21,877 nucleotides of DNA from the IMG/VR virus record IMGVR_UViG_2695420643_000029; one strand, 5' to 3'. The notes beneath the pieces are model-generated. The model worked only from the letters and a program-made list of their open reading frames with translations. It was not told the origin of the DNA and searched no databases. The position numbers and the translations under genes are program-made. This document shows positions 14,000-14,477 of the stretch, in pieces. Source of the DNA: a virus (taxonomy: Duplodnaviria > Heunggongvirae > Uroviricota > Caudoviricetes). The first letter of the stretch is position 1, and the number at the start of each line of letters is the position of its first letter.

Positions 14000-14178
14000 A
14001 ATCATAATGGGTGCTTGAGGCTATCTGCCTCAGGCATGAACACCAAAAGGCAGATAGAGAAAAGCCCCAGTTAACATTACGCGTCCTGCAAGACGCTTAA
14101 CATTAATCTGAGGCCCAATCTATGCTTCACAAACGTAGGTTAGCCTCTTACGTGCCGAAAGGCAAGGAGAAGCAGGCT

Positions 14179-14334
14179 ATGAAGCAGCAAAAGGCGATGT
14201 TAGTCGCCCTGATCGTCATCTGTTTAACCGTCATAGTGACGGCACTGGTAACGAGGAAAGACCTCTGCGAGGTACGAATCCGAACCGGCCAGACGGAGGT
14301 CGCTGTCTTCACAGCTTACGAACCTGAGGAGTAA
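14179..14334 (+). CDS. hok: Hok/Gef-family type I toxin (small membrane peptide)
   Basis: 51 aa MKQQKAMLVALIVICLTVIVTALVTRKDLCEVRIRTGQTEVAVFTAYEPEE; AAGGAG SD; in-frame upstream ORF from 14122 (70 aa total, mok-like length). Confidence 0.88.
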   Translation: MKQQKAMLVALIVICLTVIVTALVTRKDLCEVRIRTGQTEVAVFTAYEPEE

Positions 14335-14402
14335 GAGACCTGGCGGGGGAGAAATCCCTCGCCACCTCTGATGTGTCAGGCATCCTCAACGCACCCGCAC
14401 TT

Positions 14403-14426
14403 AACCCGCTTCGGCGGGTTTTTTAT
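14403..14426 (+). terminator. Rho-independent terminator at 3' end of hok transcript
   Basis: ACCCGC-TTCG-GCGGGT followed by TTTTTT. Confidence 0.75.
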
Positions 14427-14477
14427 TTTAATGGGGTAAATTTTAGCCAATCCTTCTATTTAACCGACCAGGGTTTG

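Follow-up and report, generated by a model that had tools for sequence, protein, structure and literature searches.

Positions 14009-14430 (+) of a 21,877-nucleotide stretch of virus DNA (Caudoviricetes; IMG/VR record IMGVR_UViG_2695420643_000029), the whole of which is referred to here as the window, very likely represent a complete and probably functional type I toxin-antitoxin cassette of the hok/sok family, located in the nin region of a Rac-type lambdoid prophage. In hok/sok systems, which have been studied since the 1980s, a small membrane-killing peptide is restrained by an antisense RNA. The locus is of an already known kind and is in effect an already annotated gene: the segment 13990-14440 shows 100% identity to the chromosome of Escherichia coli OkiPb01679 (NZ_AP042500.1), in which RefSeq annotates only the hok coding sequence, under the name hokD, and leaves mok, Sok and the regulatory RNA elements unannotated. 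The original prediction, made from the letters of the window alone, had proposed that a type I toxin locus of the Hok family, comprising mok, a structured leader and a terminator, was present. This proposal is borne out by matches to Pfam and Rfam, by covariation across 37 loci and by 93.5% nucleotide identity, over 14009-14406, to the mokW/hokW/sokW locus of the Stx2 phage 933W (Sakai prophage Sp5). It had also been foreseen that an alignment might reveal disrupted regulatory elements; none of the elements examined is missing or disrupted, and no insertion sequence (IS) element, frameshift or truncation was found in the locus, which appears intact, as far as its sequence can tell, with every element present. 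Only two points are mildly new, namely the Sok RNA and promoter left out of the RefSeq annotation, which can be annotated from the coordinates given below, and the hypervariability of the Sok 5' tail among close relatives. Beyond correct annotation, the importance of the locus is slight.

The hok toxin gene encodes 51 amino acids at 14179-14334 (+) and matches the Pfam family HOK_GEF (PF01848; E = 7e-24), scoring 83.6 bits where the cut-off is 22. The mok gene of 70 amino acids (14122-14334, (+)) starts upstream in the same frame, at 14122, and extends hok at the N-terminus; it matches HOK_GEF at E = 2e-23 and has the layout of the annotated mokW and mokC. Both the 51-residue frame with its Hok/Gef signature and the upstream in-frame start had been recognized by eye, and both stand. 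To compare the locus with its relatives, 61 loci were fetched from species-representative genomes, and an alignment of 37 rows was assembled from the window and 36 sequences taken from the fetched loci and the 933W and Rac phage records. The aligned sequences are ~70-97% identical and represent Escherichia, Shigella, Kluyvera, Pseudocitrobacter, Citrobacter, Pantoea, Erwinia and Photorhabdus; all counts over 37 loci given below refer to this alignment. The mok Shine-Dalgarno sequence GAGG (14109-14112, (+)) lies 9 nucleotides (nt) before the mok AUG, with G102, A103 and G104 invariant and G105 nearly invariant in the alignment. That of hok, AGGAG (14165-14169, (+)), overlaps the -35 element of the Sok promoter on the opposite strand. 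The toxin is identical to HokD/RelF-type proteins at 50 of 51 residues and to HokW at 46 of 51, and RefSeq names the product of the 100% identical stretch hokD (WP_000813269.1). Since the NCBIfam Hok models gave matches below their cut-off only (49.1 bits against 73), the RefSeq name 'HokD' did not come from a threshold-passing hidden Markov model in this test.

Antisense RNA and its promoter

The predicted Sok antisense RNA of ~75 nt occupies 14056-14130 (-), in agreement with the annotations of sokC (K-12) and sokW (933W). The annotated 5' ends of these two RNAs both align to 14130, and their 3' ends to 14054 and 14060, respectively. The predicted RNA folds with -31.7 kcal/mol (z = -4.5) into a long hairpin, preceded by an unpaired 5' tail and followed by a U-rich tail, CUUUUCUCU; the hairpin corresponds to helix 5 of the alignment, in which six pairs show compensatory changes. 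As predicted, Sok spans both the mok Shine-Dalgarno sequence and the mok AUG.

The Sok promoter was located at 14137-14165 (-) by reading the minus strand together with homology. It consists of a -35 element TTGCCT (14165-14160), a spacer of 17 nt and a -10 element TAACCT (14142-14137), with the predicted start at a G (14130) ~7 nt downstream of the -10. The -35, the spacer and the -10, as well as the extended Sok hairpin, are identical to those of sokW in 933W. Across the 37 loci the -10 reads TAATCT in 12, TAACCT in nine, ACTCT in nine (with a one-base gap at the first position) and TACCTT in four, the remainder being three single variants; positions 2 and 6 are invariant. Takada et al. (2021; PMC8621323) reported that HokW is toxic, that sokW transcribed from its own promoter neutralizes it and that a promoter-less mutant loses this protection; sokW RNA was detectable by Northern blotting and disappeared upon prophage induction. 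Primers YO-421/YO-422 of that study (Table 2) change the plus-strand sequence TAGGTTAG to CCGGCTCG. Read on the Sok strand, this 'pro-less' mutation is TAACCT to GAGCCG, in the same hexamer as the -10 of the window. At the level of the sequence, both the Sok RNA and its promoter thus appear to be present.

We also observed that the most variable part of the cassette, among 14 loci at least 89% identical, is 14117-14136 (both strands), which comprises the Sok 5' tail and the first mok codons. The mean column entropy is 0.89 at 14117-14128 and 0.55 at 14129-14140, compared with about 0.1-0.2 in the flanking stretches, and the Sok hairpin adjoining the variable tail is almost invariant in these close relatives. 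Similar DNA is found in 4724 of 5426 complete E. coli genomes, at a median of two places per genome and a maximum of nine, and with such copy numbers the variability of the tail could reflect selection against cross-talk between copies.

Folding of the hok mRNA

In an Rfam search of the whole window, 14009-14184 (+) matched the 'sok' family RF01794 over the full length of the model (positions 1-157 of 157), with a score of 120.1 bits where the cut-off is 59. The match lies on the hok strand and corresponds to the hok mRNA leader from the 5' end to the hok AUG, whereas on the minus strand Rfam returned only a misplaced sub-threshold match (24.6 bits at 13909-14068). Because the Rfam 'sok' model matches the hok mRNA strand, the result certifies the conserved leader and not the Sok RNA directly; of the two RNAs for which a covariance-model search had been proposed, it is the hok leader that was recovered. 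The full-length hok mRNA is predicted to extend from 14009 to 14426 (+), the 5' end being placed by homology and the 3' end by the terminator. BLAST homology to other hok loci begins at 14008/14009.

The mRNA (14009-14424) has a minimum free energy (MFE) of -174.9 kcal/mol, with z = -9.03 relative to shuffled sequences, and in the MFE structure 14009-14020 is paired with 14384-14396, which is the end-pairing between the tac and fbi elements. When the MFE structure of the window was projected onto the 37 loci, 85.4% of the positions were paired, compared with 36-45% when the partners were slid by 1-3 columns, and compensatory changes on both sides were found in 47 pairs compared with 17-29. Because one of the aligned sequences itself supplied the structure, the percentage paired is favoured by construction, and the excess of compensatory changes is the stronger evidence.

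The tac element (GGGUGCUUGAGGC; 14009-14021, (+)) forms the 5' end of the mRNA and has three alternative partners. The first is fbi (CCUCAACGCACCC; 14384-14396, (+)), with which it forms helix 1, paired in 93.7% across the 37 loci with two compensatory pairs; many BLAST matches stop just past fbi, at ~14396. The second is the 3' arm of a local metastable hairpin, 14027-14037 (+), whose partner is 14011-14021; this is 97.3% paired, compared with 33-43% when slid, and it appears in the MFE structures of 3'-truncated mRNAs. The third is a candidate ucb element (GCCUCUUACGUGCC; 14143-14156, (+)), which is complementary to tac and 86.5% paired, compared with 31-59% when slid, with one compensatory pair. 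In Photorhabdus loci the mRNA has C instead of U at position 4, and this substitution is matched by an A-to-G change of the partner base in each of the three segments (fbi, the local hairpin and 14143-14156). Coupled covariation of the partners of the hok mRNA 5' end was reportedly described by Gultyaev, Franch and Gerdes in 1997. Refolding from tac-fbi to tac-ucb after 3' processing is a step that we infer.

A 9-bp inverted repeat had been noted in the leader at about 14018-14058. The repeat exists, and its coordinates can be tightened to 14021-14029 (CTATCTGCC) and 14049-14057 (GGCAGATAG) on the (+) strand; in the full-length fold it extends to a 10-bp stem, 14021-14030/14048-14057. This stem (helix 2) is 91.8% paired across the 37 loci and three of its pairs have changed on both sides, so that the repeat is conserved and compensated and is not a chance match. 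It is one of two mutually exclusive pairings of 14021-14030.

Downstream of the reading frame, a G+C-rich hairpin in the 3' untranslated region (14341-14364, (+); helix 17) shows five compensatory pairs. By analogy with the plasmid R1 system we take this hairpin to be the likely barrier that sets the processed, active 3' end. The intrinsic terminator (14403-14430, (+); helix 19, four compensatory pairs) has a stem at 14403-14420 of seven pairs, five of them G-C, closed by the loop TTCG and followed by the T run TTTTTTATTTT. The strong terminator predicted at 14403-14426 is therefore confirmed, and a scan of 13900-14600 revealed no second terminator-like site. In a search of 601 bases, 14343-14424 (+) gave a sub-threshold match to the Rfam isrK family (30.5 bits against a cut-off of 50; E = 1e-4). 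We judged this to be a generic resemblance, consisting of two hairpins and a terminator, and rejected isrK as an identity for the hok 3' untranslated region.

Known relatives, mechanism and rival explanations

The 933W locus shares with the window the in-frame mokW gene of 70 amino acids and the 51-residue hokW, and its sokW antisense RNA measures about 71 nt. The two differ at 5 of 51 Hok residues and at 4 of the first 16 nt of the Sok 5' tail. They also diverge at the 3' end past fbi, where the terminator hairpin of the window is absent from the aligned 933W sequence, and in location, the 933W cassette lying past the late genes, close to where the record ends, and that of the window in the nin region, with unrelated promoter DNA upstream. 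The hokD (relF) gene of the K-12 Qin prophage encodes a toxin identical at 50 of 51 residues, with a single I/V difference, and its DNA homology runs from 14165 to the terminator. K-12-type hokD loci have relE directly upstream and are without tac, the Sok target, the mok start and the Sok -10, whereas the window keeps the full leader; on this comparison, K-12 hokD/relF is a truncated remnant of a cassette whose complete form is the window copy. The hokC (gef)/mokC/sokC locus of K-12 has the same architecture at ~75% nucleotide identity, with the sokC 5' end at 14130. In hokC-type loci, by contrast, the Sok hairpin is 18 nt shorter and the -10 is of the ACTCT type instead of TAACCT, and in K-12 hokC an IS186 element lies directly downstream and fbi is lacking.

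The prototype of the family is the hok/sok (parB) locus of plasmid R1, for which tac/fbi end-pairing, mok-coupled translation and an antisense Sok RNA are the elements of the model developed in the Gerdes laboratory. We take the R1 mok gene to be in a different frame from hok, whereas in the window mok is an in-frame extension. R1 hok/sok is a plasmid-stability locus and not a prophage gene, and it is too diverged for matching of the whole locus at the DNA level; HokW is 44% identical to R1 Hok (PMC8621323). Among the plasmid matches listed, the weakest cover only about 40-85 nt of the leader.

On the identical record, RefSeq annotates a Rac-type lambdoid prophage inserted beside ttcA, in which intR, xisR, ralR, recT, recE and kilR are followed by immunity and replication genes, then by DUF1367, DUF1364 and DUF1133, and then by lysis genes. 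The annotation of phage Rac gives the DUF1133 family as the Q antiterminator. The hok/sok locus sits within the nin-type region that separates the replication genes from Q, and it has the same orientation as these genes. Its leader is present in 4281 of the 5426 complete E. coli genomes, and 102 phage records, 933W among them, match the hok/sok region. A recent survey found hok in almost 80% of Enterobacteriaceae genomes and enriched in prophages, and in a survey of 44,248 Hok homologues prophages accounted for 23% compared with 5% expected (10.1101/2025.08.07.668861). Near-identical hok cassettes (92-99% identity, DNA or protein) also appear under labels such as Actinobacillus phage (PP818812.1), a Veillonella metagenome-assembled genome, Xanthomonas pisi and Acinetobacter idrijaensis, among others. 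Several of these oddly labelled records are very short contigs, and they look like E. coli contamination or mislabelling with no real host range behind them.

By homology, the cassette would most likely work as follows. A stable, highly folded hok mRNA (~14009-14426) would be made constitutively and, with tac locked to fbi, would neither be translated nor bind antisense RNA. Slow 3' trimming to the G+C-rich hairpin would release the 5' end, making the mok ribosome-binding site accessible, and translation of hok would depend on that of mok. The short, unstable Sok RNA, transcribed from its promoter on the minus strand (TTGCCT-17-TAACCT; start ~14130, ~75 nt), would pair with the mok start region, blocking translation and marking the duplex for RNase III. 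Should Sok synthesis stop, either through loss of the prophage or upon induction as in hokW-sokW, Sok would decay first, and the 51-residue Hok would then be made and damage the inner membrane. Upon prophage induction HokW is produced ~1 h earlier than the endolysin and increases phage release about twofold (PMC8621323).

Two genes directly upstream of hok bear on its role. An rmrT-like reading frame (12241-12891, (+)) and an rmrA-like reading frame (12878-13999, (+)) overlap on the same strand as hok and match the PADLOC models RmrT (E = 1.4e-18) and RmrA (E = 5.7e-107); the latter also carries the Pfam domains HTH_3 and Peptidase_M78. RefSeq labels the pair 'hypothetical protein' and 'helix-turn-helix domain-containing protein'. 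By these matches, the pair is the RosmerTA anti-phage defence system, which has been described previously (10.1101/2022.05.11.491447, PMC10440598). The original prediction had seen in hok and its neighbours a small addiction/defence islet. The neighbours do indeed match a known defence system, and a functional cassette whose main role is abortive-infection defence jointly with RosmerTA, as one islet, and not prophage maintenance or lysis, might be argued from two further points: R1 hok/sok lowers the plating of T4 (as cited in PMC8621323), and in phage Tritos (OV696610.1, 3170-5248) hok is followed by an unnamed protein and an XRE helix-turn-helix/ImmA-type metallopeptidase, a similar gene pair. 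In Tritos, however, the order is opposite to that in the window, and of 5426 complete E. coli genomes only 31 contain the rmrA-hok junction, compared with 4281 that contain the hok leader, so that Hok and RosmerTA can be rejected as one conserved unit. Moreover, hok is not enriched near defence systems (12% observed compared with 9.4% expected; 10.1101/2025.08.07.668861), other phages carry the same hok cassette beside unrelated genes, no PADLOC model matches Hok, and in the single experimental study devoted to a prophage copy, that copy helped to release the phage carrying it (PMC8621323). A joint defensive role is therefore unlikely. Since the junction is rare and hok shows no enrichment near defence systems, the adjacency is best read as the shared residence of two independent cassettes in a variable prophage region, with no functional unit between them. 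The lambdoid nin region gathers small toxin-antitoxin and defence cassettes, in this case RosmerTA beside hok/sok.

The putative promoter of the hok mRNA (13974-14002, (+)) overlaps the last codons and the stop of rmrA. It comprises a -35 element TTTATA (13974-13979), a 17-nt spacer and a -10 element TAAAAT (13997-14002), and scores 9/12 in a consensus scan. TAAAAT stands 6 nt before the conserved GGGTGC start, and a TAnnnT hexamer (TAGAAT, TATAAT or TACAAT) was found at the same distance in 39 homologous loci inspected.

Several observations weigh against a complete, probably functional cassette. The strength of the hok promoter is uncertain, because its -35 is weak and the sequence preceding 14008 belongs to the 3' end of rmrA, with no homology to other hok loci. 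No terminator was found between the rmrA stop (13999) and 14009, and read-through from rmrTA, giving 5'-extended transcripts, is therefore possible. A consensus promoter scan of the minus strand, which had been proposed as a check, returned nothing. The Sok -10 TAACCT fits the consensus at only three of six positions, which explains both why the scan misses this conserved promoter and why none had been convincing by eye; it was homology that revealed it. When 3'-truncated mRNAs were folded with RNAfold, the 5' end formed the local hairpin, and the refolding from tac-fbi to tac-ucb was not obtained. The transcription, 3' processing, toxicity and role ascribed to the window copy are those suggested by its homologues, and since the late region of this prophage carries pseudogenes (RefSeq), a role in phage release is doubtful here.

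An explanation as improbable as the joint defensive role is that hok is expressed mainly as the 3' end of an rmrTA operon transcript and not from its own promoter, which would alter silencing of the mRNA. A gap of 10 nt that contains no terminator separates the rmrA stop from the start of the hok mRNA, and homology to other hok loci ends at 14008; both observations are in keeping with such a transcript. Against it, the promoter-like site places its -10 at exactly the conserved distance from +1, and tac-fbi pairing presumably need not have tac as the physical 5' end.

A silent relic, in which the features of the family are kept without expression or toxicity, as reported for chromosomal hok loci of K-12 (IS elements, point mutations, rearrangement), is slightly less probable again. 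Chromosomal hok loci are often inactive, as the IS186 and missing fbi of K-12 hokC and the absent leader of hokD-type loci illustrate, and in the window the 3' end of rmrA has taken the place of the DNA 5' of 14008 and the hok -35 is weak. On the other hand, the promoter -10, tac, the metastable hairpin, the Sok target, the mok Shine-Dalgarno sequence, mok, ucb, the hok Shine-Dalgarno sequence, hok, fbi and the terminator are all present and in register, the hok frame is unbroken, the Sok promoter does not differ from that of sokW, which is functional, and the identical sequence is kept in ~30 genomes. A decayed locus was rejected, no element being absent or broken.

Most speculative, and very improbable in our view, is a scheme with two separate parts. 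In one, read-through from rmrTA or during induction would oppose the Sok promoter and couple the firing of RosmerTA or prophage induction to the release of Hok; early-right operon transcription on induction, or rmrTA read-through, would then yield a 5'-extended hok mRNA. In the other, the Sok 5' tail would act as a specificity code between hok/sok copies, and the tail at 14117-14136 would keep several copies in one cell from cross-neutralizing.

Other elements of the prophage

Apart from the hok/sok cassette, which we regard as complete and probably functional, the prophage contains a second type I toxin-antitoxin system at window positions 1557-1735 (+) and 1776-1970 (-), where a RalA antitoxin RNA (RF02694, 219 bits) adjoins ralR, as annotated by RefSeq on the identical record. 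A cluster of small RNA matches was found at 6584-7049 (-), consisting of C4 antisense RNA (78 bits), isrK (68.6 bits) and DicF (54.7 bits). The first two of these lie within the 5' part of the coding sequence that RefSeq calls 'Rha family phage regulatory protein' (~5975-6823), and for this reason the start of that gene may be called too far upstream.

Downstream of the cassette, a tRNA-like element at 16401-16460 gave a partial Rfam match of 37 bits and is annotated by RefSeq as tRNA-Met (~16400-16470), whereas ARAGORN called no tRNA in the window. On the 3' side of the DUF1133 (Q-type) gene, STnc100 (16547-16740, (+); 141.8 bits) lies end to end with the anti-GcvB sponge RNA AgvB (16741-16802, (-); 96.5 bits). 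Just past the hok terminator, a reading frame of 58 amino acids occupies 14584-14760 (+) and is preceded by a promoter-like site at 14478-14505. Part of this frame (~14587-14664) is a truncated pseudogene according to RefSeq, and at the equivalent position phage Rac from strain 442/2 carries the antirepressor gene rem.

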